Below are positions 15,298-53,215 of a DNA stretch of 64,000 nucleotides, piece by piece. Location: NCBI GenBank assembly GCA_017499595.2, contig CM039000.1, positions 434,001-498,000 on the forward strand. Reading direction: 5' to 3'. The DNA comes from Psilocybe cubensis (lineage: Eukaryota). The notes beneath the pieces are model-generated. The model was not told the DNA's origin. It was given only the letters and a program-made list of their open reading frames with translations, and made no database searches. Each line of letters starts with the position of its first letter. The stretch's first letter is position 1. A program made the translations under genes and the position numbers.

Positions 15298-16476
15298 TTA
15301 TTCATCTCTACCGGTATACAAATGCTTTTCCAAACTCGATTCAATCCCTGCCAGCCCAGCGTCAATTTCCTCCAGCACATTATAAGTCAGAATCTCTGAC
15401 TGCAGCTGATGCAGCCGGAGGTTCTTGAACGTTGTAACCTTTCCGTCATAACTACTGTCGCCGACGGAACTGTCAATTATTTGGTCGTATGTTGCCCGTA
15501 GCTGCTGCTCGGTATAATTCTAAAATAGTTGTCAGTATCTAGTGCTTGGTAATATCTGAGTACATACATATAGAAAAGGAGGGTTAAAATACGCCGTCTG
15601 ATCTGTCACATTCTCGAACTCAATGTCAGACTGGGTGGGAGGCGAACCGGGGTAGCCGCCCATGGGATCAAACCTGCCGTAGGTTCGAAAATAAGGGTTT
15701 TGAAGGAGCAGGTGGCATGCTTCAGGGGGTGGAGAATAGCGACCTTGCTTCCTCTCAGAGAAAATAGCTAGACGAGAGTCCATAATGATTTTGTCGACGA
15801 CAGACGTGTATGAAACATGTGCTGCCATCAACGGCGGAGCCGCATCATCCCGGATGACAGGCATAGGTGGAGGATCCAGGGTATCTGGAATAACAGGCAT
15901 AGGGGGAGGATCCAGGGTAGGTGGAATGACAGGCATAGGGGGAGGAGCTAGGTTATTTGGAATGATTGGCATTGGCGGCGGAGCCAAGTCGTTCCGGATG
16001 ACAGGCATTGGCGGCGGAGCCGTGTCGTTCCGGATGACAGGCATTGGCGGCGGAGCCGTGTCGTTCCGGATGACTGGCATTGGCGGCGGAGCCAGGTTAG
16101 CTGGAATGACTGGCATAGGGGGTAGAGCCAGGCTAGCTGGAATTACTGGCATTGGCGGCGGAGCCAGGTCTTTCCGGATGACTGGCATAGGGGGCGGAGC
16201 CAGGTTAGCTGGAATAACAGGCATAGGGGGTGGAGCCAGGTTAGCTGGAATTACTGGCATTGGCGGCGGAGCCAGGTCTTTCCGGATGACTGGCATAGGG
16301 GGCGGAGCCAGGTTAGATGAAATGACTGGCATAGGGGGAGGAGCCAGGTTAGCTGGAATAACAGGCATAGGGGGTGGAGCCAGGTTATCTGGAATGACTG
16401 GCATTGGCGGCGGAGCCAGGTCATCCGTCCTTGCTGTGCGTTTGCTTTCCTTAGAGTTGCTAATATTTGAAGACAT
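15298..16476 (-). CDS. KDZ-1 cargo: proline-rich repeat protein of unknown function
   Basis: ORF 15532-16476 with (LAPPPMPVIxxN/D) repeats; GT-AG intron ~15520-15568 joins a last exon NYTEQQLRATY...GRDE* ending at 15298. True start may lie further upstream. Confidence 0.6.
15825..16425. repeat. 36-bp coding minisatellite, ~16.5 copies
   Basis: Unit like ggcattggcggcggagccaggttagctggaatgact; encodes a 12-aa repeat on the minus strand. Confidence 0.95.
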
Positions 16477-16959
16477 TGCTGATGCTCAGAAATCAATTTA
16501 AATTTACTTGAATTAATGCAATTAGTCTTACATTTTATAGGTTTTACGGGAGGAGGTTCCTTCAGTTTTTCGAGAAGCCTGGTAAGATTGTTGAGACTGG
16601 TGTAGTCAATGGGGGAATTTTTGCTAGAGGTGGGAATAAAGTTGTAGGAGGACATACAGTCCAGAAAGTGCAACTGGGTGGGCTTGTTTATATATCTCAC
16701 GGAATACAATACTATCCGAGGATTCTCCATGACACGGAAATAGATTCACCCGTGTATCGAACTTAGCAACTTTTGCACAAACTGGATCTGGTGAAGAAAT
16801 CACATGACTCAGATTGTACATGTTTGTGTATGGTTTTGTTTTGCGGGACCGCTTTTTTTTAGACTTTTTTTAGACTAACTCCAACCATGATCACCACCCC
16901 ACGTTCTACCGTGCCTCACCCATTAACGCGTCTTCCCCCCCAAAAAAAACGCTTTCCCA

Positions 16960-19537
16960 ATGGCCTCTTCATCTTCCACCACCGCCACCTTCGCCCAACG
17001 CCTTGCTGACTGGGAAAAAACCTTTACAGAGTGCTACCGCAATGGCGAAAGCGCGTTCAACGCTCAGTTGGAGCAGCTCTACAGGGACTTGGTGAGTAAT
17101 CGATATCCCTTGAGCATAAGACTTACTGAACAAAAAAAATTCATCCAAATAGGTTCCACTGTGTCAAGAACACGTCAGGGACGCGGCCAACTTCCGCCTC
17201 GTGGATTATGTCGCAAGCCCTGTCGTGTATTCATACAAGACCAGCCAGGGCAAGGACGGCAAGCAGGTAGCAAGGTTCGAGATTGACTGGGCAAATTTGC
17301 ATCATCAAGTTGCAAATTTCAAGGCATACCAGCAAGGCCAGGAGGCACAGAGGAAGAGGAGGGAGGAGGAAGAGCAAGAGAAGAGGAGGGAGAAGGAGGA
17401 GCAAGAGGAGGAGGAGAGGCAGAGGGTGGAGGAGAGGAGGAAGAGGGAGGTGAGGAGGAAGAGAGAGGAGAAGAAGAAGAGGGAGGAGGAAGAGGAGAGG
17501 CAGAGGGAGGAGGAGGAGGAGAGGCAGAGGGAGGAGGAGAGGAGGAAGAGGGAGGAAGAGAAGCAGAAGGTGGAGGAGAGGAGGAAGGAGGAGAGGAGGA
17601 AGAGGGAGCAGGAGAGGAAGACCAGGGAGCAGGAGAGGCAGAAGGCGGAGGAGAGGAGGAAGAGGGAGCAGGAGCAGGAGCAGGAGACAGACGAGGAGAG
17701 GAACAAGGAGGAGACGGAGAAGAGACGGGCCGAGAAGGGCAAGGGCAAGGCAGTCGAACCCCCGGTGGAAGACGGACCCGTGACAGACGCCCACAAAGAC
17801 AAGGGCAAACGGAAAGCAGCGGACCCCGTGGAGTCCATTCAGTTGGCTCCAGCGGACTACAGGGGCCCACGGACAAGGAAGGGGGAAATCATTCCCCACA
17901 TCACCGCCTCCAACATGCCTGGTCACCCAGCGTACAGGGAGAAGCTGGAAAGATTGGCGAAGTCCAAGCAGGGGAAGTTCAGGAGCAAAGCAATCATAAG
18001 AAGCCACACGGACGAAGACGCGGACGCCGACGTCGACGAGGACGACGAAGGCGATGACCAAGAGGCCCCGCCTACCACCCCCACCCGGAAGATGCTCACC
18101 CGGTCTGCAAAGAAGGACGCCAACCAGGACAATATCCCCCCCATCAGGAAGGCGCGGTCGAGATCCGAGAAAGCGCGCCAGGTGCCGGAGGGGATGGTGG
18201 ATATGGTGGAAAGGTGCACGGGATGCACCAAATTCAAGGTGCCGTGCCATGTCAAGGGAGAGACAGGCACTGAGCCTCTCGTCCCCGTAAAGCACCAATC
18301 TTGCGAGTCTTGCAAGTCTCGCAAGATTCACTGCAGTTTCTACCCGGGACGTTTCTACCCGGGACGCAACACTGTCGCCGGGCAATTCAACCTCTCGACG
18401 CCGCTGGGAAGTTACGGGGAGGTGTTGAAGTTGGAGGAGGGAGAGGATGTTCCGGCGAAGGGGAAGGCCGGGGAAGGGTCGTTCCCTGAGGATGTGGGAG
18501 AGCTGCTTGTGCAGCTGTTTGAGCGACAAGGCCGACTGATGGAACGGATGGATGGCCTTTCCGCGTCCATGACGGCGATAAACGCACGGATTGCAACGTT
18601 TGCCGAGACAAACTTGGCGGTGGAGAAGAGGATGAAGACCGTCGAGGACAGCTTCCAAGAGCTGAAGGCCGAGTGGACCACGGCAAAAGAACAAGTGGCA
18701 GGAAACACTTCGCTTTCCGTCACGATGTTCAACAACATCAAGCAGGCGATCCAGGACGTTCAGTACGTGGTCGGGGTTTTGCTGGAGCAGGATGAACAAA
18801 GGAATCCCGCCCCCAAACAGGCAGCAGGACCCTCCAAGACGGAGGTTGAACAAGAATCGGGTCCGTCGCGGACCCGTGAACCCACCTCTGCGCCACAATC
18901 CCCCAGCCCACCACCACCGCCAGCACCCCTCCCTTCCCCACCTCCACCTCCAGCAGCACCCATTCTCCCTTCCCCTCCTCCACCACCGCCAGCACCTGTC
19001 CTCCCTTCCCCACCCCCACCTCCACCCGCACCCGTCCTCCCTGCCGTGTCTGCGCCACCAACAGCGCTATTCTTGCCCGGTTCGACTCCGGAAGCGCCTT
19101 CGCCCCCCCCAGCTGGCCGACCCTCGCTCCCACCGGTACCACCCGTCCTTTCCCTGTCTCCACCACCCCCTCTCCCAGCTCCACGTCCTCGAAGTTCGAC
19201 GTCAAAGGCCGCACCGTTGTCAAAGGGTGCACCATTGTCAAAGGCCGCGCCATCGTCATCGTCAAAGGCCGGCCCATCCTCAAAGGCTAAGCCATTGTCA
19301 AAGGCTAAGCCATCCTCCAAGGCTGGGCCATCCGGGAATGGACACTCATCGGAGTTGTCTGATCCCTCGGACAGCGACGAGGTTGAAATTGTGGAGGAGG
19401 ATGTTGAGATCGTGGCGTCCACGCTGCCCGCGTCGAACATAGCCACAAAGACAAGGGCTGGACGGAAGCGAAAGGCGGAAACGACTCTGGCTGAAGCATC
19501 GCGCTCGCCCAAAAAACCCAAGGCCCAAAAAAAGTAG
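16960..19537 (+). CDS. KDZ-1 cargo: coiled-coil protein with Zn2Cys6-like cluster and Pro-rich tail
   Basis: Exon 16960-17091, intron 17092-17152, long exon in the frame of ORF 17201-19537; E/R/K-rich helix; CTGCTKFKVPC-x18-CESCKSRKIHC six-Cys motif; second coiled coil; basic NLS-like C-terminus. Confidence 0.75.
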
Positions 19538-19802
19538 TGTATTTCAAATCTTTGTAACTTTTTTTGGTCTCCTTTTTTGCCTTGTCTCATAGATTGCATT
19601 GTACAATTTTTAATATTTGGACTGTATATAGTTTTTACTCTCATGTGCTCATCTGTTTTATATCTCTCCCAAAAAGTAGCACTTGATGATTTTTAATGAA
19701 CCCGCTTTCTGTTTTGATTTTGTGTGAAAACATGTTTGAGAAACATCAAGATAAGAATGAAAAGCATCACATTCAATAGGTATTATGAATCTACTTCAGC
19801 AG

Positions 19803-22113
19803 CTAGGCTTTCAAAGTTTTTTTTCTTTGTCTTTTACCTGCTACAACAAGCAGACTTGCTTCCTGAAGTGCTAAGGCATCCGAAGTCACATTCCTGCGGG
19901 CCCGTGTTTCATCCGTATCTGGACTTGTTACTGTCTCCACAAAGGCATCACAAGTCACGTCCCTGCCGGCCCGTGTATTATCCGTGTCTTGGGTTGTTCT
20001 TGTCTGAACTCCACTTTCTTCCACTGTGTCAAGTGGATCTGAGTAGGGCTTTGTTTTTTTCCTAGGTTGAATCCTTCTAGTTGGTTTTGGCTTAACTGGG
20101 GCCGGTACAGAACTCTCTTCATCGGGTCCGTCCATTTCCGCCGTTCCGACATATGGCTTTGTTCTTTTTCTTGGCATAATCTTTCTAGCTGGCTTGGGAG
20201 GCGCCTCCTCAACCTCTGGAGTTGGGCTGGATGATGGATTGACAATTGTTGGGCTGGATCTACTTGGTAGAGAGGGTGGCTCGCTAGATCTTGAAGGTGC
20301 GTCGGTAGGAGTCTCATCCGTCTCTGGCGTGACTTCAAATCTGGCAGTAGTGCGTGGCATCGCGGATGCCGGACTGCCCCGTCCATTATCAAACTCTGAC
20401 AGATTGGATGATTCAGAGTCGCTTGAAGATTGGGTTTGAAGTCGTATAGCTTTTTGCCTCAGGCGACGTTTGGTTATTGCTGCAGGAGGTGGAGGTATCG
20501 GGTGGGCTTCTAGGCCGTCAAACAAGTTGGACGGATAGAGAGGTTCCATAATATCATAGCCATTTCCAAAAACCTTTGAAAATTTAAAGGGGATGTCTCC
20601 TTGGGCTTGACGGTCCCTCCATAGCTTGAGAATTGCAGAGGTTGACTCCAGGCGGAGCCGGCTCGGATCCGTCACGGGGATTGAACTTGGCCAATACTCT
20701 GGATCAATCATTTCTGCAGAACGCCTTTCAAGAGCATCCCAAGGAACACTTGAACCAGGCCTGTCCTTGGCTAAAGCTGTATACATAGTTAGCAAGTTTG
20801 TTGAGGACATAGACAAATTACACACCATAAACCTTGTTCATGTAAATTCTAATAATTGACTTTTGTGCATAAGCGACTTCTCTCCCAGTTGAGCCATAGA
20901 TAGGACTAGGTACTATTGGAAATCCATTGCTGCTAAACTTGAGGGATTTTTCATGAAACGATGCATCTGGCAGTGCTGGATTGGCCACACCCTTCTCTAT
21001 TTCTGAAATGTGGACGAGGTATTGAACAAATGCTCTGTGAAAAGCGGCCAACTCGGATGGAAAGAGTTGCCCAAAGGAAGGAATTCTGACATCGTCGAGT
21101 GCTAGATCGCTTGTCTGGGTCCTTCAATGCCCATCAGTCAACATTAATACGGGCCAAATTATTCCGCCGCGAATGCTTACGGCGGAAACTTTATCCGCCG
21201 TAGGGTGTTTACGGCGGATAAAGTTTCCGCCGTAAGCATTCACGGCGGAACTTGTTCATGCCGTGTTTAACACTTACATTGAGTATTCGATTTTACCCTC
21301 AATATCATAATGCCCCTCAAAGGTAATGGACCTCATACCCATTCTCTGCCACTTAAGTTTCTCCATTTGTCGAAGTATTTTTCTGCCTTGCCTGGCAGCA
21401 GTCCTGCAGATGTCAGATTGACGGCGGAAACAAGTTCCACCGACTCACTTTGCCTTCATTGATTTTGAAACACCTTTCTTATTCCATTCCTCGAGGATCT
21501 CCATGAACCTGTCCCGCTCCTCCTGAGTCAATCTGGCCTCAACCTGCTTACGTCCTTGTTGATAAAACTTCATCCAATCTTTACTTCCACGAGCAGCATT
21601 CCCTGATAGAAGCGCAACCTCGGAGTCAATCTCTGCCGACTTCTCCTCACGGAATACCATCTGAAAGGTTATACGGGAGTTCAATCCTTCCAATTTTACA
21701 CCAATTCGATTTGATGCATGGTTTCTAAACCAATTAAATATTCGCTATTGTGATGGTTTATGTGTGTAACAAAATTTTCAAAGAAACAACGAGCTCACAT
21801 GCTTCTTCACCTTCCATTCTTTGTGTAGTTGCTTATCTTCCTTCCTAGCACGTCTAGAGTATCTGTGATCCCATGTAGCTTGCAGCTCAGGTATGACAGT
21901 GTTCTGTATGTAGTCTGCTTTGGATGACTTTGATGTATCTTTGTAGGGCTGTACATGCTTTTTCAACACGCGCATTTCCTTTGTTGTCCAAATATTTGAT
22001 TCTTCCGGCGGAAAGTCACCCTCCGCCGTCTGTCCGTTTCTGGGTCCGTTGTGGGTTGTGGCATTTGCGGTAGAAGGAAGCGGATCCGCGTCGGGGGATG
22101 CATTGGTGGGCAT
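19803..22113 (-). CDS. KDZ-1 cargo: multi-exon helical protein with possible HMG-box-like segment
   Basis: Exons WTTKEMRVLKKH..., WMKFYQQGRKQVEARLTQEERDRFMEILEEWNKKG, WQRMGMRSITF, GFPIVP, IDPEYWP...LWRDRQ; clearly homologous to 39683-42077. HMG assignment is inference from known KDZ-linked HMG genes. Confidence 0.65.
21162..21250. repeat. Intronic near-perfect hairpin (41-bp arms, 7-nt loop)
   Basis: ttccgccgcgaatgcttacggcggaaactttatccgccgta-gggtgtt-tacggcggataaagtttccgccgtaagcattcacggcggaa; one mismatch; inside intron 21122-21277 (-). Confidence 0.95.
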
Positions 22114-22992
22114 AATTGCAGTGATGTAACAAGTAGCTTATCGATGAGTATCTGTGTGATCTGGTCAAATCTCACGTCATACGGAGATAAAATAAGCTTC
22201 CGATCATACTAAATAAATGATGTGATGTCATATTTTTCCCAATCAGGTAATCCCGCTTCATCGTCGGCCACGATGATCAAAGCATGCTGGTCGCTGTCAC
22301 ATACATTGACCTCATGATTTTGCAATAGTTCCCTCTGCATTCAATCAATAAACATGGAATTTTGTAAACATTTAGCGCTTTATATAAAGATAATTTTACA
22401 AGGTTTTAAATTCTTGTCAGATGGCTGTAAAGATACAGAAACACAAAATGCAAATTCACGTCTTCTCACCCAAAACTTGTGAAACCCAAAACGGCAGTCA
22501 TCTCAGAGACCATGAGAGGTATTCAAATGCATAATTTTTTTCAAAAAATATAATGATCCCAGTGAGCTCATTTTGACACATTTTCTAGTATATTGAGAAT
22601 ATCTCCTTAAATACGAGGATTCACATTCTACAAAAAATGTCATTCGGTAGCTATTAAAAATATCTTTCATATGATATACGCCGGAGGAATGAGGGGCCAG
22701 CCAGTGAAAAGATATTTCAAAAACACTCCAAAGTGTGGTTCTGAAAGGGTCGTTCTGCATCATATTGTACATTTATGATGGGATCACGTCCATTTTGTGC
22801 ATCTCTGGATTAAGTTTTGTTCATAACATTTCACTCACTCATCCAAATATGCTGCAAGATAAGTCATATGAAAGCTATTTTTCTCCTCTTTAAAACGGCA
22901 TAATTGAGGGAAATTTATCTACAGAAATAAACATGTTATACTACATTTAGATCTGCGCTCACAGGCTATCAGACTCTTTGTTTCCAACATCC

Positions 22993-25900
22993 ATGGGCTT
23001 CAAGAAAGTACCTGATAGGGGATCGGATGAGGAGTTTCCCAATGTTCGGGAGGCCTCCTGGTCTAGTGGGGCCAAGAAACGAAAGAGAAGGCGGCCGAGG
23101 ATCCACAAACTTCCTGCAGAATCATCATCAACAAACCTCCCTCAAACAACGACTTACTCTTTCCAAAACCATGAACACAACATTCTGGAAGAAGAAATAC
23201 CTCATTATCCGGGAGATCTAACTGATCAGCAGGTACTTGATAACCTGAGACAGCTAGATGACGACAGAACGGGAGGAAAGGTATGTTTTAACATGTTTTC
23301 AGTAGAATGATCAGGATGACTTTACCTATCCAGTCTCAAAATGATTACCTGAGGGAATGGCTCCCGAAACGAGAGGTGTATCTTGGAACAATGATTGGAG
23401 GAGAAGCCCCGGATCCGGATCTGAATGGACAGTGTCAGCAATGTCAAGGAATGTCTGGAGTGTGGAGATGTTGCCAATGCTTTGGCTCTAGAATTTTGTG
23501 TTCTGAATGCCTGCGAAGAAACCATCAATTTACACCTTTCCACCGCGTTGAGAAGTGGACGGGTCTATATTTCCGTCCGGGAGCTCTGTGGGAAGTGGGT
23601 GTCAAGTTGTATTTGGGTCATAATGGGAAACGTTGTCCTTATCCCACGGATCCGAGCCACCTAGGATGGGACGGCGGAAACAATTCATCCGGGAGTCATG
23701 GGCACGGCGGAAACAATTCGCCCGTCTTTGAAGATGAACACGGATTGGACCTGGATCCGCTTCCTGCGAGCAATGACCAAGAATCCTTTACGGCTCAGCT
23801 TCTGGCGGACCCGGAGGTACCCCATTTGGTTGAGCTGGACGATGGAGACGATGAAGACGATGATCTATTCGAGGAAGTCGATACAACCTATCTGGACCAA
23901 CCTCGTCCAAAGGCAGCAGACAACAATGGAATTCCTTTCAAGGCAATTGTGCACACCTCCGGAGTCCATTATCTGCCCGTGCGAACATGCACATGCCGGT
24001 CCGTCCGCCTTCCGTCTATCGATTTACAGTATCTGGAGATGGGATTATTTGCAGCCAGCTTTGAAAACGTTCAAACTGTGTTCACAGTTGAGGTCCTTGA
24101 GGACTTTCGGATGGACAACCTCGAGTGCAAAATGTCGGCTTATCAGTATTACCAAAAGTTGCGAAGACTGACTTCGCCAGCGTTTCCAAAAAAGGTGCTG
24201 AACCGCTATCGTGAATTGAGAAGGCTTAGTAGAGAATACAGGGACCTTGTCCTGAGACGACAATACGGAGAAGGGCATACAAGAGAAGCGGTGGTCCCTT
24301 ACTATCGTCATTGCCATGATTCATCACCAGAGAGGATGGGTATTAATGTATCTGATCCAATTGACGGCGGATCTGATAGTCCGTCTCAAGAAGTCGGAAT
24401 GTCAACGGACCCGTCTCTGGGACACGGCGGATTAGATGGTCCGCCTGTACCACAAATGACGCGGACCGAGGATCATCCCGAAGTTGAAGATAGGAGAGGG
24501 AAGTTGGCCTTATTCTGCCCCGCCTGTCCACAGCCTGGAATAAACCTACCTGATAACTGGATTGATGATGCTGATAGGCAAGTTTTAGTTATTCTTCAAG
24601 GGTGACTGCAATTAACAGCAAGTAGCAATCTGTACATACGTAGTTATGTTGCAGATGGTAATTTCAAAGCAGATCACCTCAATCAGAAAAACGAGGGAGA
24701 CGATGTTTGGTTGAGCGTTGGAGAAGGATACATGACTGCTCCGGGCCCTTACAAGGAGCACATTAAGGAAGCAATTTCTCTTGCTCCACGTTATAAACGG
24801 GTGCGTTATCTACCATGATTTATCTTTCACGGCGGATGCTTACGCTCCGTGTCAAAATCTTCTACGGCGGATGCTTACTTTCCGTGTCAAAAAATATCAG
24901 GAACAAACATGTCATAACTACCACGCCCAGAAAGCTGAAAACAGAGTCAGCCCGGGTAAGAGAGTACGTGGAATTGGGGCACACGCTTGCGCTAGGCACG
25001 GATGCTTCTGTCCATCCAGCGTTGTCGATTTTGACAAAGGTGAAAAGCAGATGCACATGGATTGGTCTTTGACTCAGGCCAGGGAAACTACCAACACACA
25101 GGGAATCACAAAACATTTGGAAATCTACGATATAAACTGTCAATATTGCGTTAACTTGGCAAGGCGTCTCTCAGAGTCCACAAAAATGCATTGGCCACCT
25201 TCTGTTAAAATGATTTTTGCAATTGGTTTATTTCACGTCCACGGGCACAAGACGGAATGTCTTTACAACTATGCATCCACCTATGTCCCGGGTGTGGGAA
25301 TCATTGACGGAGAAATCCTGGAGCCGTTGTGGTCCGTGTTAAATGACACATCCCGGAGTACACGTTCCGCTACCACTGCCCATCGAGCAGAGGTTTTGGA
25401 CGACCACATGGGGGATTCCAACTGGAAGAAGACCATTAATATGGCTGCAACAATTGCTGCAAAGTTCAAACGGGCACGGGAACAGTCCGGAATCACAGAC
25501 CAATTTTATAGGGGTATCACGGATCAACAAGATTCCGGGCTCATCAACACTTGGGAAGATGAAATTTCAAAAGCAGAAGCGGACCGAGAACAAGGTGTGG
25601 CCAACGCTGTTGGCAAGGTAATGGCAAGCAAAGTGAAAACGGCTGCTGGACGCCAAGAAATTGAATTGCATCTTTCAAATATGGAACTTACATCTAATGG
25701 TGCTACTGGAAAGGCAGCATGGATATCATCCGGCTTAAAACTGGAGCAAGCGCAGTACGATTATTTCAATTGCATCCTACAGAATTTAACATGTTTTTAG
25801 ATTGGAGCTCAGGGACCATGTCAGAAAGCTCGGAAAGCATCCTTCCACCGCGCAGAAACTTGACTTGGTCAATAAACGTCGCTCCATGCGGACCCGCGTT

Positions 25901-26876
25901 GAAGCCTTCTGTCGATCCGCTATGACCTTCATGGGCGAAGATGTCTTGGAGGATATTCAAGGGGACATTGCTCCCATACTTGACTATGAAGTCAGTGACA
26001 ACGACGATCCTGATCTTGGAAATGTCAACATTACCCGCGCGGATCCGGAACGACAGCCGCTTCCGTTTCCCTCCGCCGTCAAACAAGATTTCTTTGACGG
26101 CCTTGACGCGGGAACAAACCTCATTTTAAAAGGGCTTCGCAAACTTGAACTTCAAATAAGACATGGCCACGCAGAGGACTGTCTGGAAGCGGTCCGGTCA
26201 GCCTTGATCCAGCTTTCTTGGCAGTATAAATATCAGGTTCGGACCGCCGACTCCGTCTATATGGGGACTCGTGCTTGGGATGGCGTCAAGCTTTTGAATG
26301 CTTCCTGGAAATTGCACCGGCGACTCTACAACACAAACCGTCAGAAGATGATCTATTTATCTGCTGGCGTGCGAGACGAGGATAATATTCGGAAACAATA
26401 TCCCATTCTGCAAGTCCATGATTGCAAGCATAGTAATGCCGTGTCGGATCCGAACATTCGCGGAGGAAGCTCGGACCGTCTAAGTTGGATTTGGAGATCC
26501 CGTCAGGGCCTGGACAATGATAATCAATTATACGTTAATGAGTGTGAGTACTGCCATTTGTATTTCTAATTTTTTTCTCAAAGGTTTCTTAGTCTTCAGG
26601 CTAAACTGGCTCCGCGCGCGAGCTCAGAGGAATAGATGGCAAGAGGAGCTGGCCTTGACAAAAAAGGAAATGGAATGGACTGTCAGATTTTATGTGTATA
26701 TGGCAAAGACATGGCGTGCACGGCATGATTTTGTTCCTGACAGGTTAGTTGGTCACAGGGCAAATGCTCAAAAGCAGATTGCCATGTGGAATGATCTGGG
26801 GCGGGCCGCGGATAAGGTCTTCCGTCAAATTAACCCGGAGTATCCGTCCGTGTGGAGATTTATAATTACAGATTAA
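22993..26876 (+). CDS. KDZ transposase with CxC2 cysteine cluster, apparently intact (6 exons)
   Basis: CQQC..WRCCQC..CSEC..H.FTPFHRVEKW; CxC2 region VHTSGVHY..CTC; LALFCPACPQPGINLP; ADGNFK; CARHGC; YDINCQY; FHVHGHKTEC; DGEILEPLWS; LDDHM; WLRARAQRNRWQEE. Introns 23281-23333, 24578-24625 (GC-AG), 24801-24900, 25755-25800, 26544-26592 keep the frame. Confidence 0.92.
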
Positions 26877-26920
26877 CCAGTTCTTTGAACATTCTTGTTG
26901 TATCTCATCTTGTTGAATTC

Positions 26921-28545
26921 ATGCACTTACCGCGGCTTTTTAAACCTCCTGTCGAGGACGAACATCATCTCCTTACCTATGATGAGCGACGTGCTCTGGC
27001 CAAAGTTCATGTCCATATTTGTGGTGCACGGATCCGTGCCGGATACCGTTTGTTCATTGCAAACGGAGACTCTGTTTCCTCCGTGCGTCGCCAAAAATGG
27101 ATGTATTTGCTTGACCTAGAGGTGGTAAGACAGTAATTTTGAACTATTATATCTTGCATTGAGAACTGCTCGATAGGCTATACTGCTGAGAGTACTCGGA
27201 TACTGCTATGTCAATGGATTCCAAGTCGATATTCCATTTTTTATATCAGAAATTCTCAATCAGAGCGTACATGCCGTTTTGAACCGAACTCCCCACCATC
27301 GAGCTGTTTTATTTGAATCTCTAAATCAAAGCTGGTCAGCATGGGAAGATGATGAAATTTTAAATCAGACCAAGAGCTGGGGATATTGGTGGAGGGACGG
27401 ATTTGCTGAAGGCGATGAGTGGCAAGTTGCCTTTGTTACCGTTGAATCGCAAGCAAGAGAATTTTGGAACAAGGTATGTTTTTTTATTGCTGTGGATTAT
27501 ATCTGATTTGCGTCCTTCCCACCAGGTGGTTCTGCCTGAATACCAACAAGAGGTACTCCGGCTAAATAATCAGAGGAAAGAAGCTAAGGAGGGCGCAAGT
27601 TCATCCACCTCTGGGCCTCCAAGAAATCAAGAAAACAATCCCAAGGGCAAGGGAAAGGCGGCTGAACGGACATCCGTCCCCACCTCGGGGAAGCACGGAT
27701 CCGCGTTGACGGGAAAGCACGGCTCCGCGTTTTCACCGCCCACGGGGAAACCCAATCCGCCGACCCGTGTTGCAAACACGCGGGATGAAACATCCCCAAT
27801 TGCAATTTCTGACCACAGACCGCCCTACTGTCCCCGCTGCGGTCAGCCTATCCTAACGGGCGTAATGAGGGAGTTGGCTCACCTGCGCCGGAATGTGGCG
27901 GACAAAATGAAGAATGCCCATAAAGCAGTGACTACTTCTTCGGCCGCCTTGGGCAGATATTCTGTATTGGAGAAGATGTGGATTGACTCTAAGGAGCTCC
28001 CGTTCTCTAACGGCAAGGGGCTTTCAGCCAAATACAAATTTCAGCATCCCGTTCACCCTTCTCCTGACAGTTGGGGCGCTATAACGGCTCAAGCCCGGTC
28101 CTTCAAGGTCTCAAAGCTCAAAGTCGCTTCATTTTACATCAACGACATTTTTTATTCTTTTATTGCCGTCAAGGAACTACCTTTTCATCCACTCTGGTAT
28201 CATTCGCCACCCTCCAACACTGCAAATATTCATCTCCCAACAGATACTCTGCCTACGCCCGGTTCCGTCAGCCCTCCGTCAAATGCACACACCAGCAATG
28301 CCTTCCTTTTTAACGCAAGGTCAAGACCTGTTTTCCCGGGAGAAGAGGATGATATTGATAGTACGTCCGATACCACTGAATCCTCTACACCAGCTACGTT
28401 TTTAGAGCATCTCGCACAGGACTTTGAAGAGGAGGCGGATGAGGAGTCTTCCGCCGGTGATACGACGGAGGAGTCAGATGCTTCCGGTAACTCGGAAGAG
28501 CTTAGCGAGGACGTGTCGGAAACACCCTGGGATGAGGAATCTTAG
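26921..28545 (+). CDS. KDZ-1 cargo: conserved unknown protein (WW and CxxC motifs, acidic tail) downstream of the transposase
   Basis: CGARIR..KWM..LDLE / GYCY..G..VDIPFFI / WWRD / CPRC; homologous to 46111-47829 and 58176-59746. Confidence 0.65.
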
Positions 28546-28686
28546 TTGCCCACCTCTCGCACAGGACATCGAAGAGGAGGCGGATGATGCCTTTTCCGCC
28601 GGTAATACGACGGCGGAGTCCGATGATTCCGGTAACCTTGGAAGAGCTCAGCGCGGACGCGTCGGAAACACCCTGGGACAGAGAAT
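28408..28686. repeat. Diverged ~144-bp tandem duplication spanning the stop codon of the CxxC cargo gene
   Basis: ctcgcacaggac...gaagaggaggcggatga...ggaaacaccctggga occurs twice (~28411 and ~28556). Confidence 0.85.
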
Positions 28687-28772
28687 TCTGGTTGTGCTGT
28701 AGCTTTCGTACTGTTTTGGTTTGGAAATATAAAAAAATCTTCCCCAAACCCAACTTCCAAGTCAAAAACTGA

Positions 28773-30052
28773 TCATATTTCAAAATCAAAAGCGTTGGTG
28801 GCCGGTAAATTTGCAAAAAGATCGTACGTAGTAGACCATCCTGCCTCTTGGACTCCCAGCTCTTCAAATACAGTCCTACGCATGTAATAGACTATGACTG
28901 CCCTGTCTCCATCGCACACCGCGCCGTGTTGAAGCAACCTGCCGGTAATTGCAACAAGGGTCATGGGATCATACTTGTACCGAAGTCCAAGGCCCGGAAG
29001 CTCAAGCCGTCCGTGTTCACCCTTCCCAAGCGGCATCAAAAAATCGTACCATGAGTAGCACGACCCATTATCCCGATGGTATGGTGTATCTCGGTTGCTG
29101 ATCACGGTCATGACTCCAAAGGGCGAACTCCAAATTGTGAGAATTTGCTTCAATATTTCAGCCTTATGGACAAGCTCCGGTTCCGCAGCAAGCCGTTGAA
29201 GAAATTTCATTCCCGCCCGGTACTGCTCGGGATGTATAATGCTCAAGATGGCTCCCAGCAAAGCCGAAGATGTCGTCGTGTCTCGTATAAACTCCTGTCC
29301 AATTGGATTACACAAGTCCAAGGAGACCTCAAGCGGGTTGGACGTCTGAGGAAAATATGAGGCAGTATAATAATTAGCATACAAGTTTCTCACCTCATGG
29401 CCTTGCTGAAACCATGCCGGGGAGAAGTTAATATTTCCAGGTTGAACCCAACCTGGCTCATGTCGAAAGTAACTGTCATTGACCCTCCAGCTTGTGGCCA
29501 AAGGTACCGCCTTGTGAATCATTGTTTCAATATCCCGTAATGAATTCCACACACTCTCCTGTTACTCTTTAGAAAGCATAATATATGAATTAATTGGTCT
29601 GTTTCTAAAACTCACCACCCTTGTCTCTGACAAAATACCTGGCAGGTACCACACCAATATGTTGCCTGCACTATCGACCACAGTTCCGGGCAGGGTTTGG
29701 TACTGTAACGCGGAATGCACCGGAGAAAACTTGTCTTTCAGGCGAGCCTCAACGGTAAAATTCTGACCCGTGCAACGTGCACTGAGATGAGTCAAATATT
29801 CTTCTGCATCCCACGTCGTATATTCTGCCATTCACACATTATTTAATCTCAATTTTCAAAGCTTATTGATTGCATACCTTGATTTTCAAATGCCTGCAAA
29901 ATCACCTCCACAGCTAGATTGCACTCAAACATGGTCTCAGCACTGAAGTTTTCCCGGATTTGATTAGGCAGTTCTGCATGCCAAAGACGACTAGCTATTT
30001 GTGCCTTCATGTAGTTTGAGAGGGATTGGGTTAGCTCAAAGGCATAATCCAT
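28773..30052 (-). CDS. TET/JBP-family 2-oxoglutarate/Fe(II) nucleic-acid dioxygenase
   Basis: Four exons; IHPEQY, NRDTPYHRD (HxD), LELPGLGLRYKYDP, LLQHGA (distal His), DRAVIVYYMR (2OG-binding Arg), matching the fungal TET/JBP pattern; no stops seen in exons. Confidence 0.88.
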
Positions 30053-30193
30053 GCTATCAGGGTATGTGGAAAGGAATGTGCTGCCAGTATAATCTATACA
30101 CCTTATTACATATATTAACGGTCATCCGATGTATGATTCTTCAAGGCGGATATTTGTCGGAATACAGAAGCGGGTGGATGAATGGACCCGTCT

Positions 30194-30495
30194 CAGCACA
30201 ACACGGGTCAAAACGGATCCGTCTGCTTGCAATACACGGGATGTAGATGGACCCGTCCGGTTCATTTGCGGCCCGTGTTTTTCCCGTGCAGCCCGACACG
30301 CGGATCCCGCATGCCACCCGGCGGCTCCATTTAGTGCTAAATGGCACGTCATGTACGCTATGATTTGCCAGGATAAATCACACGTACATCACGCTAATCT
30401 CCTAATTAGGTAGCGGGAGTAAATCCACCGTGTCTCACGTAATATCCTTATTATTAAATCTTAGGTAATGTATGTTATAAATAAACTGTCTTATG
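30194..30495 (-). repeat. Right TIR of KDZ-1 (302 bp)
   Basis: Inverted copy of 14903-15204. Confidence 0.95.
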
Positions 30496-31099
30496 TGCCT
30501 GTATATTAATATATTCTTTTCTGGATAAAGATCTGGGGGGAAATGAGAGTGCATTGGTTGTTCCAGGTGGGCTTTTATAGCTTTTTGCTACAGGTCATAT
30601 GGTATAGGTGACATTAATGGGTACAGACGGTAAATCTCTGTCCCCCTGATGTGATCCATTTCGAGTCATAATTCTTTAAGCTTTAGCTTTATCAGTTACG
30701 GATACATGCGTATCCTTCGAACTTTTCTTGTGAGATACTGGTCGATCTGCTTGCTTTATGCGCATCGATATTGAATGGCAACATAGCTCTGATCTACCCT
30801 TAGTCCCTACCCACCCTTAAAGGTATGATCGTTCTCCGTTTCTTTACCATCTATAGTCTCCAGTGCCACTTTTCTCGAATACTATTTCTGTTTGTATCTG
30901 GAGGCTGTTACAGTCTCACTTGTTTAAGTACATCCACGACTTGAACACGACCCGAACACGAGGTGTGAAATGAGGATGAATCTGGTTCAAATCAACCCCG
31001 CAAAGCTCGTCTTGAACTCTCACACTTACAGGTAATCACGACAATTTTTGCAAGCAGCTTGAGGCTCTTCTTCCTTGAACTGCTAGAATATTTCTGGCC

Positions 31100-35087: not shown

Positions 35088-35344
35088 CACATACTAAGAC
35101 TACATAGTACTGTATAACATGGTACAGTGGACTGGTATAATGTATCGTATGATAGGGATTCAATAAATTCATTCATACACTGAATATGACATATCTATAC
35201 ATAGTAATCTACATTGTACTATACTGTGTGCAATCCTTGAATGTGGAGAGGAGGTACCCGTCACATGGGTGGGTCGGGTGTAGGCACTTGCACACAATGG
35301 GTGTCGGAGAAATCGAATGTTGGTGTTGGGTGTCCGACTTGCAG

Positions 35345-35742
35345 TGTGCGAGTGCAAGTGCAAGAGCGTGAGTGCGAGTGTGAGTGTAGGTGCGAGTGCG
35401 GGTGCAAGTGTGGGTGCAGGTGTGGATGCGGGTGCGGGTGGGAGTGCGAGTGCAAGTGCAAGTGCGAGTGGAAGTGTGAGTGTGAGTGCGGTTGCAAGTG
35501 TGGGTGCGGGTGCGGGTGGGAGTGCGAGTGCGGATGCGGGTGGGAGTGCGAGTGCGGGTGCGGGTGCGGGTGCGGGTGCGGGTGCGGGTGCGGGTGCGGG
35601 TGCGGGTGCGGGTGCGGGTGCGGGTGCGGGTGGGAGTGCGAGTGCGGGTGCGGGTGCGGGTGCGGGTGCGGGTGCGGGTGCGGGTGCGGGTGCGGGTGCG
35701 GGTGCGGGTGCGGGTGCGGGTGCGGGTGCGGGTGCGGGTGTG
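35345..35742. repeat. (GCGGGT)n hexamer array, left subterminal region of KDZ-2
   Basis: Near-pure gcgggt runs 35554-35740 with degenerate gcgagt/gcaagt copies to the left. Confidence 0.95.
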
Positions 35743-35850
35743 AGAGTCATTCAAGAATCACTAGTAATACTAGTAGGTTGAAAAAAATTATTGTACAATT
35801 TCAAGGACAATATTCATTCATAACAAAAATGGCTACAGTAAACTATCCCA

Positions 35851-36428
35851 CTACTTTTCAAGATCTTCACGAATACTATGCCTTTCTTCTAACTTAATGA
35901 GAGTTTTTGCCATGCATTGATCCATGTATGCATGATATCTCCTATCCCCGTCAGCCACCTTCAATTTTGCAACCTCCGCCATAAAAAGCCGATGCACGGC
36001 ATCCTGATACGAAATGCCAAGTCTCTTTTGCAAAGCACACACTTCAGCGTGAAGTGCGAGCATCTCATGATCCGTCAAAGACTGAATAGTTTTTAGTTAA
36101 ATTCCTCCAATGTATAAGTGACTAAAATAGGCTTACATTTTCGGGGGGCACTCGTAAAATACCGGACAGGGTGATATACGCATCAGACTTTTTGGCATTA
36201 GACTTCTGTAAGAGAATTAGCAATGAATTTTGAAAATCATAATTAGCTTGCACTTACTTGAGTCAGGTCGGCACTAGTGACACTGACATCCTCTGTAGCA
36301 CCCATGGTTTCCAAATCGTGCTCCAAAGAGGATAACATGAAGCGGGGGACAACATATTTAATGTTGTCCGGGCCATCAACAGCGATGTAGCCTTCCGGGA
36401 TGTTTGGTAAGGTGTTCTGGACACTCAT
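35851..36428 (-). CDS. KDZ-2 cargo: small spliced protein of unknown function
   Basis: Three probable exons: MSVQNTLPNIPEGY..., KSNAKKSD...CPP, HAEVCALQKRLGISYQDAVHRLFMAE; GT-AG boundaries visible. Confidence 0.55.
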
Positions 36429-36701
36429 ATTGGGGGAATTTGACAATAACAGATAGCGACTCACCATAACTAAGGGCCTTTTATATTTGTCGGACAAGCC
36501 TCAAGCCGTTATCTAGGCGATCAGTCGGATACGCGCTTCAAGGGGCAAATGATTAAGTGCATACAATCATGTGATCGTGAACCGGATAACGAGCAACAGG
36601 GGCCCAAGCCGCTTAGCTCTCTTATCCTTTTTGCTTCCTTCCACCACCAGCCCACTAGCCCGCTCCCAAGCTTGCACCTCAAGAACTCAACTTTATATAC
36701 C

Positions 36702-39534
36702 ATGGACTCCAAAATCACCACCGCCCAATCCCTTCGTGCTGCGCTTGCAAAACTAGACGCCGATATCAAGGAGGCAGTGAAGAGTGGGGAGGTTAAAAAG
36801 ACGATGAGGAAGTTGAATGTGGTCCTGGTGCACCCGAAATTTTTTTTTACCGTGTTACATTACTAACCTAGAGGTACAGAGAGAGGTCTTGCGCGTCAAA
36901 AAGGCGAAGACCCATCCCGAAATCTTCAAGGAATTCGGCCACTTTTTGTGGTCGGTTGTGGTGGATTACAAAAGGTGCAGCAATGCGAGCGACTTTGACG
37001 TTGCTAGCTTCGCTGCCAAGCATCGCGATGCGCTGGCAAAAATTGAGGGCACCGGCCCACAATTGACGTCTACCACAGAGTCCGGACTTGTCAATCCGAC
37101 ACAAGTTCCCGACATGTCGCAGTCGGCTACCGCTCGCATTCCCCATGTATCGCAGTCGGCCACCCCTTGCCTTTCCGACGCATTGCAGTTGGCCACCCCT
37201 CGCGTTTCCGATGCTTCACAGTCGCCTACCCCTCGTGTTTCCGATGCGTCGCAGTCAGCTGCCCCTTGCGTTTCCGACGCATTGAAGTCGGCGACCCCTC
37301 GTGTTCCCAATGCGTCGAAGTTGGCGATCTTCCGTGTTCCTGATGCGTCAAAGTCCGCCATCCCGCAGGCGGCGGCAAATGACATTCCAAATGTGTTGCA
37401 GTCGGCCCCAAATCGCGGTAACCGCAAGACACCCGCAACTCAGTTGTCCGCAGAGTCGGGCGGGTTCAAGCTGACGCCCTCTGAGGCTACAATTTGTAAG
37501 TACTATTCATATTGCTATGTGTTACCTTTATATTAAATCACTGGTGGGTTTCTTTTAACTCAGTGGCATTGTCCAATGTAATAATGAAGCCAAACCATGC
37601 CTCAAGGGCAGTTGCAGGTATGTATTTCACTTTTTATGTATATGATATTCTCTTTGATGTTGCTACTTATACTAGAACTTGCTACTTCATCCTCAACCCA
37701 TCATGTTCCTCCGCCTGCCAATAACCCGGCTCAAAAGTCCAAGACCCAGATTCAGCGAGGAAAGAGGGGCTCAAAGAGCGGCGAGAGCTCGAGGGGAAGC
37801 CTCCCAACAAAGTCAGTCGGTTTGTTCGCTCATGAGGTTGCGATGGCACACTTTGACCGCCCCGATAGCCCTGAAAACAAGTTCAGGGCATTAAAGCTGC
37901 AAAAAATGCTGAAGAAGGCTCCACCCCAAGAGCCCAAATCGGGCTCTGAATACGAAGAAGTGTCGGAGAGTGAGGAGTCGGCCGTGGAGACTGGGTCAAA
38001 GCGCAAGAGGTCAGTAAAGGCGCCGACTCCGACAACAACGACTCCAACTCCGACTACGACTACAACTACAGCCACAAAGTGTGATCGATGCCTCAAAAAC
38101 AACAAAGAATGCCAGGAGATATTAAGCGACAGTGGGAAACGTGCGTATGCCTTTTGCAGCAAGCACAAGAAGGGTTGTACATGGGGAGGTATCTTGGTTT
38201 CTGAAAATCGTCGGGCGAACAAGGCATCTGCGGCAAAGACGTCAAAGAGGGGACCGAAGGGCAAGAAGTCGGAATCGACTCCTCCCTCTAATGATGAGGC
38301 CATGCCGCCCAAAAAACGGGTGAAGTCTCAGCAATGTGTGTGCTACATAGCTATTTGATTTTTTATGATTCTAATTTCCATACATCTTTTCTAGTTGTGA
38401 TAGACACCGATGAGGCCTCAGAGGGCGAACAGGCTGCTACAAGGCCAACACAAAGGTCGATGCAGAAGCAAAAAAGCAAGCCTTCGGAATCGGGTGCGTT
38501 TAAATATATTTTATTTACCTTGTTTGAAGCTCATGTTCTTTGAAGTCGATTTTGTTAAGATTAGCTCCGGCTCCGACACCCCCGCTCCTTCCAAACCTGC
38601 TCCGACTTCTGCATTCTCTGCACCCTCAGCAGCAGCTCAGAACCCCGCTTCTCTTCCATCGCGTTGTTTGCAAGACTCCGACATCATTGACATCCCAACC
38701 ATTTCCGACTTCGCCAGGCGCATCAATGAGTTGGAAATCATGGGTTGCGCGACTCAGGTTGACTTAGCAATTCTAAGAACAACCAACGAAGATCTGCAGG
38801 AGGAGCTTTCCAACTTGAAAGCGGAATATAACTCCCTCAAGCGCGGTTACGACAACCTATACGAGAGAGTTAGTAGGCATCGCAATGCTGCGGTTGATCG
38901 GCATTCGGCGTTTTCGTCGAAGTGGGAGGCTGGGATGCAAAAGGTCAAAGCCGAGGTGAAGTATCTGTCCGACTCTCTTGAAAGGACCGACACCACTCTC
39001 CTCTCTCTTGAAGGCCGCGTTGACGAGATTCAAATGATGCATCAAATGACTAGTGACGGCGCATACCTTTCTGAGGAGTTGGGTGAAGACTTGGAGAGTG
39101 CCAGTGAGGATGGTTTGGAGGATGGTTCAGTTGCAATGGATTTGTCTTCGGATGACAAGGCAAGTACTTCCAGCCCTGCTACCAACCTCAATGCCGACTC
39201 CGACGTCAACGACAATCCCGCTTCCGCTTCCACCTCCGACTTCGACGCCGATCCCGCTTCCGACAACGCCGATCCCGCTTCCGACCACACCGATCCCGCT
39301 TCCGCTGACAATGCCGATCCCGCCTCTGATGGCACTGCTAATGCTGTCACGGGTAAGAAAGCGGATCACAACGCCACTGACACCAACATTTCTGCTGCGG
39401 ATCACGGAGTCAAGGCAATCGGAAGTGAAAACATTGAAGGTAGTGGCCCAATCGGTGATGTTACTCCTCCGCAACCACCCACTACACCACCAGCACTTCC
39501 ATTGTCACCCCCCCCCCCCGCCCTCTATAGATAA
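36702..39534 (+). CDS. KDZ-2 cargo: Zn2Cys6-like coiled-coil protein (one Cys apparently lost)
   Basis: Multi-exon; 11-aa repeats VSDASQSATPR; CDRCLKNNKEC-x10-YAFCSKHKKGC; coiled coil LRTTNEDLQEELSNLKAEYNSLK; acidic/Pro tail; same position and strand as 16960-19537. Confidence 0.65.
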
Positions 39535-39682
39535 CAATGCATTGTAGTAGATTGGTGGGGGGCTATTTTTTAAAAAAAAAATTGCTTAATATAATAATTT
39601 GTTTGCTTGTTCTCATATATCACTGAGTACCTAAAATTGCACCTTAGGTATAATAGAATGTAAGCTAAAATAAAGCCGGCAA

Positions 39683-42077
39683 TTAACTAGTTCGCTCTCG
39701 AGGGCGTCGGGCCCGTTTTCCCTCAATAATCAATGTTTCTTCTACTTCTTTTCGTTTCCTTCGTGCATGTACAGGAGCGGGTTTATGCGCAGAAGCGGGT
39801 GTGGATGCAGGTTCAGGGGCAGGTGGTGCTAACACAGAAGCGGGTTCCTGCTCAGGAGCAGATGTGGATGTGGGCTCAGGGGCAGGTGGTGCTAACACCG
39901 GAGCAAGTTCCTGCACAGGAGTGGGTGCATGCATAGGAGTAGGTGTGGATGTGGGCTCAGGGGCGGGTGTGGATGCCAATACAGGTGCGGGTCCCTGTAC
40001 AGGAGCGGGTGCAACTGAACTTGTTGGCACCTGCAACCCAAGTAGTTGGTCAGAAACCCGCCATGCATCCTCTAGTTCTTGATGATTCTTCTGATGCTCT
40101 GCAATCTCCGCTGGAGTAGTAGGTGGTTTCCTAGGTCGGGGTCGGGGTCGGGATTGAGAACTTTGGATGGCAGGGGGTTGAGTTGCAGAGGATTGAGTGC
40201 CAGAGATTTGTTGACTTGCATCCTTTGGATCCACAACATTATTGGAGCTGCTAATAGGCCCACTTCGCAATGCTGGATCAATCATACAATCCAAAATTAT
40301 GTTGGTACTGGGAGGTGTTACAGTCCCAGTATGCATAGATTCCTGGGTGGAGTCAAATGTAATCAGACTTGATGCACCCTGCATTTCCTCAATTCGCATT
40401 GGAGTTTTCTTTGGCTTCTTGGGTTTTTTGGGTGGTGGAGGCCGACGTTTGGGTTTTTCTGTGTCAACATTGCGAATCTCATCGGGATACCATGTATCTT
40501 CCACATCCTCTCCTTTTCTCCCCTTTTTAACCTTGTGAAAGCGAAACACTTGACTGAGTGGAAATGTTTCTTGACGTGATCGGAGATGTGTAAATAATTT
40601 GCGCAAGTCTTCAAGGTCAAGGAATTGGGGTCGCTTCAGCTTGAAGCGGGGTGGTAAATATTCTGGAGAGATGAATTTGGATTGATAGAGTTCAATTGCT
40701 TCGTAGGGGGTTTGCGAAGTCCGACCGTGTGTCGCAAGTTCTATAAAAAAAATAATACCAGTTAAATTCAAAGTCTTCAAATGTGATTATGCTTACTATA
40801 GTTTTGACCAAGGTAAAGACGGAGCAGTGATTCCAAGTCTTTTCTATTGACCTTGGATGCATCAAAGTCTTGAGGTAAGATTGGGAACCCATCGGCATCT
40901 TGTTCAAGTATTAATAGATCAGATTTTGCTGTTATATGTATCCCAGATGTTGCTCTTTCTTTGGCGTTTAATAATCCACGGACATAGGTACTGATTAGCC
41001 TCTTCATCTGTGTTACTTCATCTGGCTTTTGCTCTTCAAATAGTGTTGAACAGACCCCAATAACACTGGCTACTTGATCATGACTATATATTAAATCAGT
41101 CGGAGTCGGGCGGAGTTATTGAATCAATCGGAGTCGGTTAGGTCGGAGTCGGCCATGATAAGTAATCAGTCGGAGTGTGTCGGAGTCGGAAATGAGTAAC
41201 GTGTGAAAATGGACTTGTAATTAAAACGCACACTTGGACTGAGAGTTGGCCAGATTCATTAATCTGGCAAACAAATGTGATACTCATTAATCCCATTTCT
41301 GCCCATTGTTGGTTTGCTGCCTCATCTAGCTTCTTGAAGGCATATTTCTTTGCTTTTCTAAATACAATTTGAATAGTAGGTCAATATTCTATTTTAATAA
41401 AACACTGACTTGCGTTTGTCTTCATCAGAGTAAACCACGGATGCATAATTTGCTGCTTCCACATCCAGCTGGCGTTTTTCGCGGTCGGACATTCGAGAAA
41501 TGATGTTGCTCATTGCTTTCATGCGGTTTTCGAAAACGCCTGGTGTCCCAACTCCTGCTGATTCTATTCCCAGAATACTAGCAATTTCCTTGTAGACTTC
41601 GTCTCTTCTGTTATACCAGAGAACAGTCGTGCGCTTCAATTTTTTACCCATTGTGGCTGCTTTAGTAAGTTTCTCCCCCCTCCAGTTGTTTCGGATCCAT
41701 GCAAGTAGTTTCTATAACATAAGAATTCAGTTGCAAATATAGTATAAAATATATAGCGTTATACCTATTGTATTGTCGGACCCGACACCCGACAGAAATT
41801 CTCAATAAAAATCAATTACTCCAATAGGTGCACATACCTTTGCCTCCTCCTGCATAAATTCTTTACTACGGCTTACGGTTCTGGTTTTACTCCAGTAATT
41901 GAAAAGATCAGGTAGTATTTCGCACACCACCTGCTTACGATCAAGGTTAGTTGCAGCTTTAGTGTAATTATCTTTGTGTTTCTCAATTATTTCGCGTTCT
42001 TGTCGATCATAGACTCTAACCAGTCTATCATGGGCACGAAAGATGTCTTCGAGTACCGCATTTTCAGTACTGGCCAT
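39683..42077 (-). CDS. KDZ-2 cargo: homologue of the helical/HMG-like gene
   Basis: [34 protein letters not shown]...HLRSRQ, terminal IEGKRARR align with the KDZ-1 gene. Confidence 0.65.
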
Positions 42078-42386
42078 ACTATACCAAATAAAATAAGTTA
42101 AAATTGATGAGGTAGTTCTCTACAGAGCCAACAAATATTGGAACAGACTAACCTTGAGGCTATGTTGAGGCTTGGGTTCTCAGAATCAGATGCACCCCAA
42201 AAATATTGGGGGTTGGAGAAGAATGAATGTGGAAACACACACACCAGAATCCTGCTCCCTTTATACAAGTCCATAAACATGAGCACATGCATATTAGGTA
42301 AGGCTAAACTGTGCAGTTGGATTGAGCCACCCTAATGTATAGCAATAATCAACCAAGACAGGAGCTTTTCTTATCTTGTTCCTATC

Positions 42387-53208: not shown

Positions 53209-53215
53209 CTCCCCC

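Follow-up and report, generated by a model that had tools for sequence, protein, structure and literature searches.

We analysed a 64,000-nucleotide (nt) stretch of the Psilocybe cubensis genome (assembly GCA_017499595.2, contig CM039000.1, positions 434,001 to 498,000), which is called the window below and from whose first letter all coordinates are counted. At 28773-30052 the window carries a gene for a TET/JBP dioxygenase (the TET gene), situated just inside the right end of KDZ-1, a complete and apparently autonomous transposon of the Kyakuja type. The features of KDZ-1 are listed here from left to right, with the terminal inverted repeats abbreviated as TIR and the target-site duplication as TSD.

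14894..14900, no strand: left TSD copy, CCTGTAT, identical to 30498-30504
14901..30497, plus strand: whole KDZ-1 element, 15,597 bp (the joint seen in reads skips 15,604 nt, i.e. the element and one TSD copy)
14901..15204, plus strand: left TIR, with the tip 14901-14902 reading GT
15535..16485, minus strand: proline-rich frame made of 12-amino-acid (aa) tandem units, facing outward to the left end
22993..28545, plus strand: CxC2-KDZ transposase gene, convergent with TET
28773..30052, minus strand: TET/JBP dioxygenase gene, exons 30052-29878, 29824-29616, 29558-29394 and 29345-28773
30053..30193, minus strand: spacer of 141 nt from the TET start codon to the TIR
30194..30497, minus strand: right TIR, with the inward-read tip CACATAAGACAG
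30498..30504, no strand: right TSD copy, placed by empty-site reads and sequence match

The gene model, made from the sequence and checked by script, runs from stop codon to ATG over exactly 28773-30052 on the minus strand. Its four exons are separated by three introns of 53, 57 and 48 nt, all GT..AG, and the spliced product of 373 aa is 100% identical to P0019, a protein entered under two Psilocybe cubensis locus tags, and differs from P0001 by a single substitution, T62M. The initial annotation had proposed a hidden Markov model search for a TET/JBP domain; with the largest frame of the gene this search gave a match to Pfam Tet_JBP (PF12851) over profile positions 3-163 of 164 (E 9.5e-19), and its score of 67.7 bits is well above the curated cut-off of 34.9. 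The TET/JBP identity of the gene is secure, and the gene model, the Pfam match and the TIRs with their TSD bear out the earlier claim of an intact TET/JBP gene within defined transposon ends. A tblastn search of the whole 64-kb window with two TET proteins found no second TET gene. Among 1.84 billion representative sequences the protein has 1151 relatives at E <=0.001 and 578 at <=1e-10, and its cluster at a minimum of 90% identity comprises 17 distinct sequences of P. cubensis. Twelve of the 15 listed cluster members are full-length (373 aa), and the cluster splits into two subgroups, with 0-3 or ~20 differences from P0001, while P0021 stands alone at 10.

Among solved proteins, CcTet from Coprinopsis cinerea (7vpn) is the nearest to the TET product, with E 3.3e-37. 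A first AlphaFold2 (AF2) model, based on an 18-sequence alignment, had a predicted local distance difference test score (pLDDT) of 34.9 and was discarded, whereas the model from a 131-sequence alignment had a pLDDT of 95.4 and a predicted template modelling score (pTM) of 0.94. This model has a double-stranded beta-helix like the solved TETs and, by Foldseek, shares its whole-length fold with the chains of CcTet (PDB 7vpn, 7w5p, 8jkk; Zhang et al. 2024, PMC11040006), with template modelling scores (TM) of 0.85-0.87 and E about 1e-33; the next structural matches were NgTet1 (TM 0.45-0.49), TET2 (0.49-0.50) and CMD1 (0.36-0.45). The residues probed by mutagenesis in the CcTet study (PMC11040006) were transferred to the TET protein via the alignment to 7vpn, with the following correspondence (2OG, 2-oxoglutarate).

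Metal ligands: CcTet H326, D328 and H376 are TET H273, D275 and H323, conserved
2OG ligands: CcTet R385, T323, Y361 and R321 are TET R331, T270, Y308 and R268, conserved
CcTet D337 is TET D284, conserved
CcTet W204 and R205 are TET W152 and R153, conserved
CcTet R393 is TET R339, conserved
CcTet F391 is TET Y337, a change (F391Y) that is active according to PMC11040006
CcTet G331 is TET Ser278, different, with Gly277 adjacent
CcTet R96 (loop 1) is TET Gln79, different

The HxD motif, distal histidine and arginine read from the frame in the initial annotation are thereby confirmed as H273-R-D275, H323 and R331. The metal and 2OG columns are nearly invariant in the 131-sequence set of relatives (H273 in 127/128, D275 in 122/127, H323 in 118/119 and R331 in 109/120), and D284 is retained in 118 of 125; the column equivalent to G331 is more variable among the 125 relatives (G 58, S 46, A 7, T 6). 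The TET product is an Fe(II)/2-oxoglutarate dioxygenase of the CcTet type, full-length and lacking none of the residues that bind metal or cofactor. CcTet is reported to act on both 5-methylcytosine (5mC) and N6-methyladenine (6mA), with D337 being central for 5mC oxidation (PMC11040006). The TET protein shares the metal triad, the 2OG ligands and the equivalents of D337, W204/R205 and R393 with CcTet, but the two proteins are just ~26% identical in the structural alignment and differ at G331 and R96. From this comparison 5mC activity can fairly be inferred for the TET protein; since Ser278 stands where CcTet has G331, the same does not extend to 6mA activity.

The ends of KDZ-1 were located by an inverted repeat of 302 nt with 99% identity (14903-15204 against 30194-30495), in which the only two mismatches are both CpG/TpG transitions; the TIRs of the element are 304 nt each, and those of the KDZ-1 family were probably once identical. 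The TET ATG at 30052 and the inner edge of the right TIR at 30194 are 141 nt apart, which makes exact the ~140 bp given by the initial annotation. Raw reads of two DNA runs (X16 and X17) labelled as the same species were mapped to 13500-31900, and their depth was ~450-630 over most of KDZ-1 (lower in the bins of its tandem repeats) versus 32-42 in the flanks, i.e. ~14-17 times as high. A precise empty-site joint, 14893 to 30498 with seven letters fitting both sides, was present in 36 reads of X16 and 20 reads of X17, which means that at least one allele in those genomes lacks the insertion. The match of reads that stem from other copies breaks off directly ahead of 14903 (255 and 248 reads) and directly past 30497 (379 and 407 reads); the consensus of the loose ends preceding 14903 ends in CA in both runs, and the right end, in reverse complement, also gives CA. 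KDZ-1 has been recently mobile.

The transposase gene encodes the Pfam domains CxC2 (PF18803, E 1.1e-21) and KDZ (PF18758, E 1.2e-37), and a search for relatives retrieved CxC2-KDZ proteins from Agaricomycetes, Laccaria and Coprinopsis among them. P0185, an annotated P. cubensis protein of 1691 aa, matches it by tblastn from residue 1 to 1691 in eight collinear pieces of 92.5-99.6% identity; one stop occurs, in the second piece (23331-24800), which spans a frame break near 24605-24736 that we take for an intron. The proline-rich frame is 94% identical over its non-repeat tail to P0032 (320 aa, annotated P. cubensis), and all five of its database matches come from P. cubensis. In a Pfam scan of KDZ-1 no glycosyltransferase or other modifying gene was seen. 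According to section 3.2.1 of a survey of these elements (Kojima 2025, PMC12730594), TET-positive Kyakuja elements have a 7-bp TSD and 5'-CA..TG-3' tips; the same source gives an 8-bp TSD for Zisupton and Dileera. KDZ-1 has the KDZ domain together with a CxC cluster, the 7-bp TSD CCTGTAT and a right end in ..TG, with GT at the left end of this copy. Judged by domains, TIRs and TSD, KDZ-1 appears to be a complete, autonomous cut-and-paste transposon of the Kyakuja type.

Several further observations concern the TIRs and the insertion site. A 33-nt unit (2.2 copies, 15158-15229) extends across the inner border of the left TIR; its last copy lies outside the repeat and has no counterpart at the right end. 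At the corresponding border of the right end (after 30193; 30137; 30212), about half of the family reads carry small insertions or deletions. Each TIR contains a palindrome, CCATTTAG..CTAAATGG, at 30331-30348 (~150-165 nt from the tip) with its mirror copy in the left TIR; at the equivalent place (columns 165-185 of alignment A2) the related loci L002 and L004, described below, have a different palindrome, CATTTGCATGCAAATG, and L022 a partial one. The palindrome may represent a binding site conserved in the subterminal region, or else a hairpin. On the left flank, an Argonaute gene with matches to ArgoN, L1, PAZ and Piwi occupies 10846-14897 on the plus strand and ends right before the insertion site. 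Its spliced contigs in two RNA-like assemblies end at 14857 and 14897, only 3-43 nt from the TSD, and KDZ-1 therefore lies at the 3' end of a gene for RNA silencing or immediately beyond it.

The position of TET at the end of the element recurs in relatives. Scanning metagenome contigs with the TET alignment yielded 47 loci, 17 of which have a complete TET N-terminus as well as 458 nt or more of upstream DNA. Nine of these 17 carry the tip motif CACATAnGACAG, found also at the tip of the right TIR of KDZ-1, in the same orientation 458-907 nt upstream of the TET start, and a tenth carries a variant; by chance ~0.009 such matches would be expected in the 36.3 kb examined. The corresponding distance from TET start to tip in KDZ-1 is 445 nt, 304 of them TIR. 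The transposase is convergent with TET, as in KDZ-1, in 11 of the 12 loci that carry both genes and co-directional in one. The relatives that share the terminal, inward-reading and convergent layout have TET proteins of 31-63% identity, and TET as the terminal, inward-reading gene is thus a conserved design of these transposons. Inverted repeats were searched for in six long metagenomic loci, none of which spans both ends: five had none and L038 had one unrelated 76-nt pair. Past its first ~25 nt the terminal region of the relatives aligns poorly with the TIR of KDZ-1.

From its terminal, inward position it follows that the TET promoter should lie within a few hundred bases of the element's end, and the question is on which side of the TIR edge. 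Among the 25 relatives with a complete N-terminus, 18 have the word TCACATGAC (CA[CT][AG]TGAC, mostly ATCACATGAC) 57-87 nt before the TET start, against a background expectation of 0.0045 per locus in that range (rate across all 47 loci). The word is embedded in a longer block, roughly AATTTTCCCATCACATGACTGGTTC (L002-L043; e.g. L007:640-660 and L033:885-905), and the 18 loci represent 14 different upstream sequences in an ungapped comparison, although L029 and L030 look like one family with a 9-nt shift. This block is a candidate promoter element for the TET genes that transposons carry. The region upstream of the KDZ-1 TET has no exact copy of the word; its spacer contains TCGGATGAC, a 7/9 match, at -77 (30129-30121), and a TATA-like run, TAATATATG, at about -60 (about 30117-30109). 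The spacer is outside the inverted repeat, and the left end is without it. These sequences make it likeliest that the core or proximal promoter and the start of TET transcription are in the 141-nt spacer, outside the TIR, and since the left end does not share the word and the TATA-like run, the left TIR would have no reason to fire.

With one mismatch allowed, the conserved 10-mer occurs five times in the whole window, compared with 5.5 expected, and so is not enriched. None of the 17 occurrences of the 8-mer TCCGCCGT in KDZ-1 falls within TET, spacer or TIRs, which gives it no link to TET regulation. The sole exact ATCACATGAC of the window is inside KDZ-1 at 16799-16808 on the plus strand, ~160 nt before the first ATG (~16960) of a large charged, proline-rich frame (16927-19537) in the same orientation, and more than one KDZ-1 gene may make use of the word.

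The initial annotation had instead placed the TET promoter across the TIR and had the identical left TIR fire inward, antisense to the proline-rich gene, an arrangement for which maize MuDR, whose TIRs contain the promoters of mudrA and mudrB (PMC10401008), offers a precedent. The short distance from ATG to tip, most of it TIR, would call for an autonomous promoter close to or within the TIR. The TIRs are also the most CpG-dense 300-nt windows of KDZ-1 (observed/expected 1.3 vs 0.8 overall), and the right one holds TACATGAC, one letter off the upstream word, at -303. The strand part of the proposal stands: since the minus strand encodes the proline-rich frame, transcription entering from the left TIR would run antisense to it. 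The promoter part fares worse, as the -57 to -87 range favoured in the relatives falls into the spacer here, with the 7/9 match and the TATA-like run; the left end has no such spacer, and the ends of the relatives share little with the KDZ-1 TIR beyond the first bases. We therefore consider a promoter or start in the right TIR, with inward firing of the left one, rather unlikely. The TIRs could still hold upstream elements for TET, TACATGAC being a candidate.

With regard to function, the decay of the KDZ-1 copy gives a hint about methylation. At 21 sites, the best-supported ones listed, nearly all reads disagree with the window, and 19 of these private differences are transitions with A/T in the window and G/C in the family; 12 of the 19 fall on a CpG of the family, compared with a background of ~20-27%. 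Transitions biased towards CpG are a signature of 5mC deamination, and KDZ-1 has therefore probably been CpG-methylated at times. CcTet oxidises 5mC to 5-hydroxymethyl-, 5-formyl- and 5-carboxylcytosine (5hmC, 5fC and 5caC), and oxidised methylcytosine is reported to accumulate around transposons in C. cinerea and L. bicolor (Kojima, PMC12730594). We propose that TET transcription would begin in the 141-nt spacer adjoining the gene and not in the TIR, that the enzyme would oxidise 5mC, and perhaps remove 6mA, on duplex DNA, and that 5mC oxidation would counteract silencing of the enzyme's own element family by CpG methylation. On the basis of CcTet biochemistry and the published survey, this countering of methylation silencing of its own family is the likeliest role of TET.

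The main job of the enzyme might be a different one, such as 6mA removal, JBP-like hydroxylation of thymine, the setting of a stable oxidised mark with a regulatory role, or action across the whole genome that does not favour its own family. CcTet itself is bifunctional (PMC11040006), and the survey describes oxidised methylcytosine in C. cinerea also over retrotransposons and centromeres and mentions other TET/JBP enzymes that hypermodify bases (PMC12730594). In addition, the G331 equivalent is here a small residue, Ser, and not the Asn/Asp of conventional TETs. The retention of D284 in the protein and in most relatives, the CpG-biased decay, which indicates methylation of the element at CpG, and the lack of a glycosyltransferase or other modifying gene in the Pfam scan of KDZ-1 speak for 5mC as the substrate, and we regard a main job other than the reversal of the element's own CpG methylation as unlikely.

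A further proposal combines regulation and function: the TIRs would have arisen by copying of the TET-side end, TET would keep both resulting CpG islands unmethylated for transposase binding and for its own expression, and the left copy would serve as another regulatory region that fires inward, antisense to the proline-rich gene. If true, KDZ-1 would be a self-contained element that keeps itself demethylated, but we consider this quite improbable. That the transposon gains nothing from TET, be it a neutral passenger or a newly trapped host gene between the ends, is highly improbable: although its function is a proposed one and two RNA-like assemblies (X18 and X19) have no contig in the 25 bins of 15342-30691, a hole that by its nature proves nothing, the terminal, inward, convergent layout recurs at 31-63% protein identity, most listed paralogues keep the full 373-aa frame and the catalytic columns hardly vary.

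The reading that we prefer, a TET cargo gene of the Kyakuja-type transposon KDZ-1 in P. cubensis that is transcribed from a start in the spacer and counters silencing, has several points to contend with. The left tip of the KDZ-1 copy (14901-14902) is GT and not the CA of its family, and these two adjacent changes might leave this copy immobile; alternatively, the GT may be an assembly error. The upstream word in the spacer is degenerate, and a match of its quality has an estimated chance of ~0.04 over the 31-position range. In the protein, Ser278 occupies the position equivalent to G331, and the loop-1 residue R96 of CcTet is replaced by Gln. Finally, we infer the enzymatic role of TET from CcTet biochemistry and a survey of fungal TET-bearing transposons, and that survey calls the anti-silencing role of transposon TETs not experimentally validated (PMC12730594, section 4.2). 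Weighing these points, we still find the reading as a whole quite probable.

Two further KDZ elements follow KDZ-1 in the window, which is densely filled with transposons, together with nested retrotransposons (LTR, long terminal repeat).

35088..48726, plus strand: KDZ-2, a TET-less Kyakuja-like element of 13,639 bp with the 7-bp TSD AGAAAAC and 5'-CA..TG-3' tips
48107-48295: tandem array of KDZ-2, CpG observed/expected 1.53
51366..64000, minus strand: KDZ-3, TET-less in the part seen, running off the window
51704-52582: tandem array of KDZ-3, CpG observed/expected 1.57
52913-53208 and 57880-58175: LTRs of a Copia element nested in KDZ-3

The initial annotation had noted that TET is missing at the equivalent position of KDZ-2 and KDZ-3 and that CpG-rich arrays sit there instead. 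This agrees with our results: both arrays are located between the 3' end of the transposase and the end of the element, and tblastn of the window, which includes KDZ-3 in part, finds only the TET of KDZ-1. Between KDZ-2 and KDZ-3 the KDZ domains share 76% identity, and either is only 32% identical to that of KDZ-1, so that the "equivalent position" compares distant families and is no evidence of a recent loss. Their sequences indicate that KDZ-2 and KDZ-3 are a separate TET-less family and not derivatives of KDZ-1 that lost TET. KDZ-2 lies within the reverse transcriptase of a Gypsy element with matching LTR segments at 31990-32165 and 51190-51365. The match of the 3' LTR of this Gypsy element stops exactly at the end of KDZ-3 (51365/51366), while the 5' copy continues past 32165, and KDZ-3 may have inserted into the Gypsy LTR.

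For an escape from methylation silencing by means of an enzyme, the TET genes carried by mushroom transposons may be seen as the main candidates. KDZ-1 provides a clean, fully delimited case in a cultivable fungus, with TET and transposase intact, exact ends and a known empty site, in a family that is multi-copy and whose insertion is variable between genomes. Promoter and knock-out work could build on the conserved upstream word and on the constant place of TET at the end of the element.

The VANDAL21 transposon reportedly also encodes an anti-silencing factor, VANC. Its likeness to KDZ-1 would be a functional one, namely that both transposons carry an anti-silencing factor of their own, which for KDZ-1 is our reading of TET; VANC is not a TET/JBP-type enzyme. 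Maize MuDR (PMC10401008) resembles KDZ-1 in having two convergent genes between long TIRs and a terminal gene that starts near the TIR. However, it belongs to the Mutator superfamily, KDZ-1 has an inward-reading gene at one end only, and in KDZ-1 the comparative evidence puts the proximal promoter word outside the TIR. The closest known systems are the TET-positive Kyakuja elements of Agaricomycetes (e.g. Kyakuja-1_LB and Kyakuja-2_LB of Laccaria bicolor; PMC12730594), with which KDZ-1 shares the KDZ + CxC2 transposase, the 7-bp TSD, the family tips 5'-CA..TG-3', the AG-type, CcTet-like TET/JBP cargo and a host in the Agaricales. Its tip CACATAA is also like the start of the Kyakuja-1_AuPo consensus (Table S1 of PMC12730594). 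Two differences stand against these similarities: the Laccaria Kyakuja families are said to have no TIRs (PMC12730594), whereas the KDZ-1 family has TIRs of 304 nt, and Kyakuja tips are CA, whereas the left tip of the KDZ-1 copy is GT. The pairing of TET with Kyakuja in mushrooms has already been described, and the Psilocybe copy is outside that published survey, the main text and Table S1 of which have 0 occurrences of Psilocybe (PMC12730594). To this known picture, which it leaves unchanged, KDZ-1 contributes one more species, a variant with long TIRs and a candidate cis-element.

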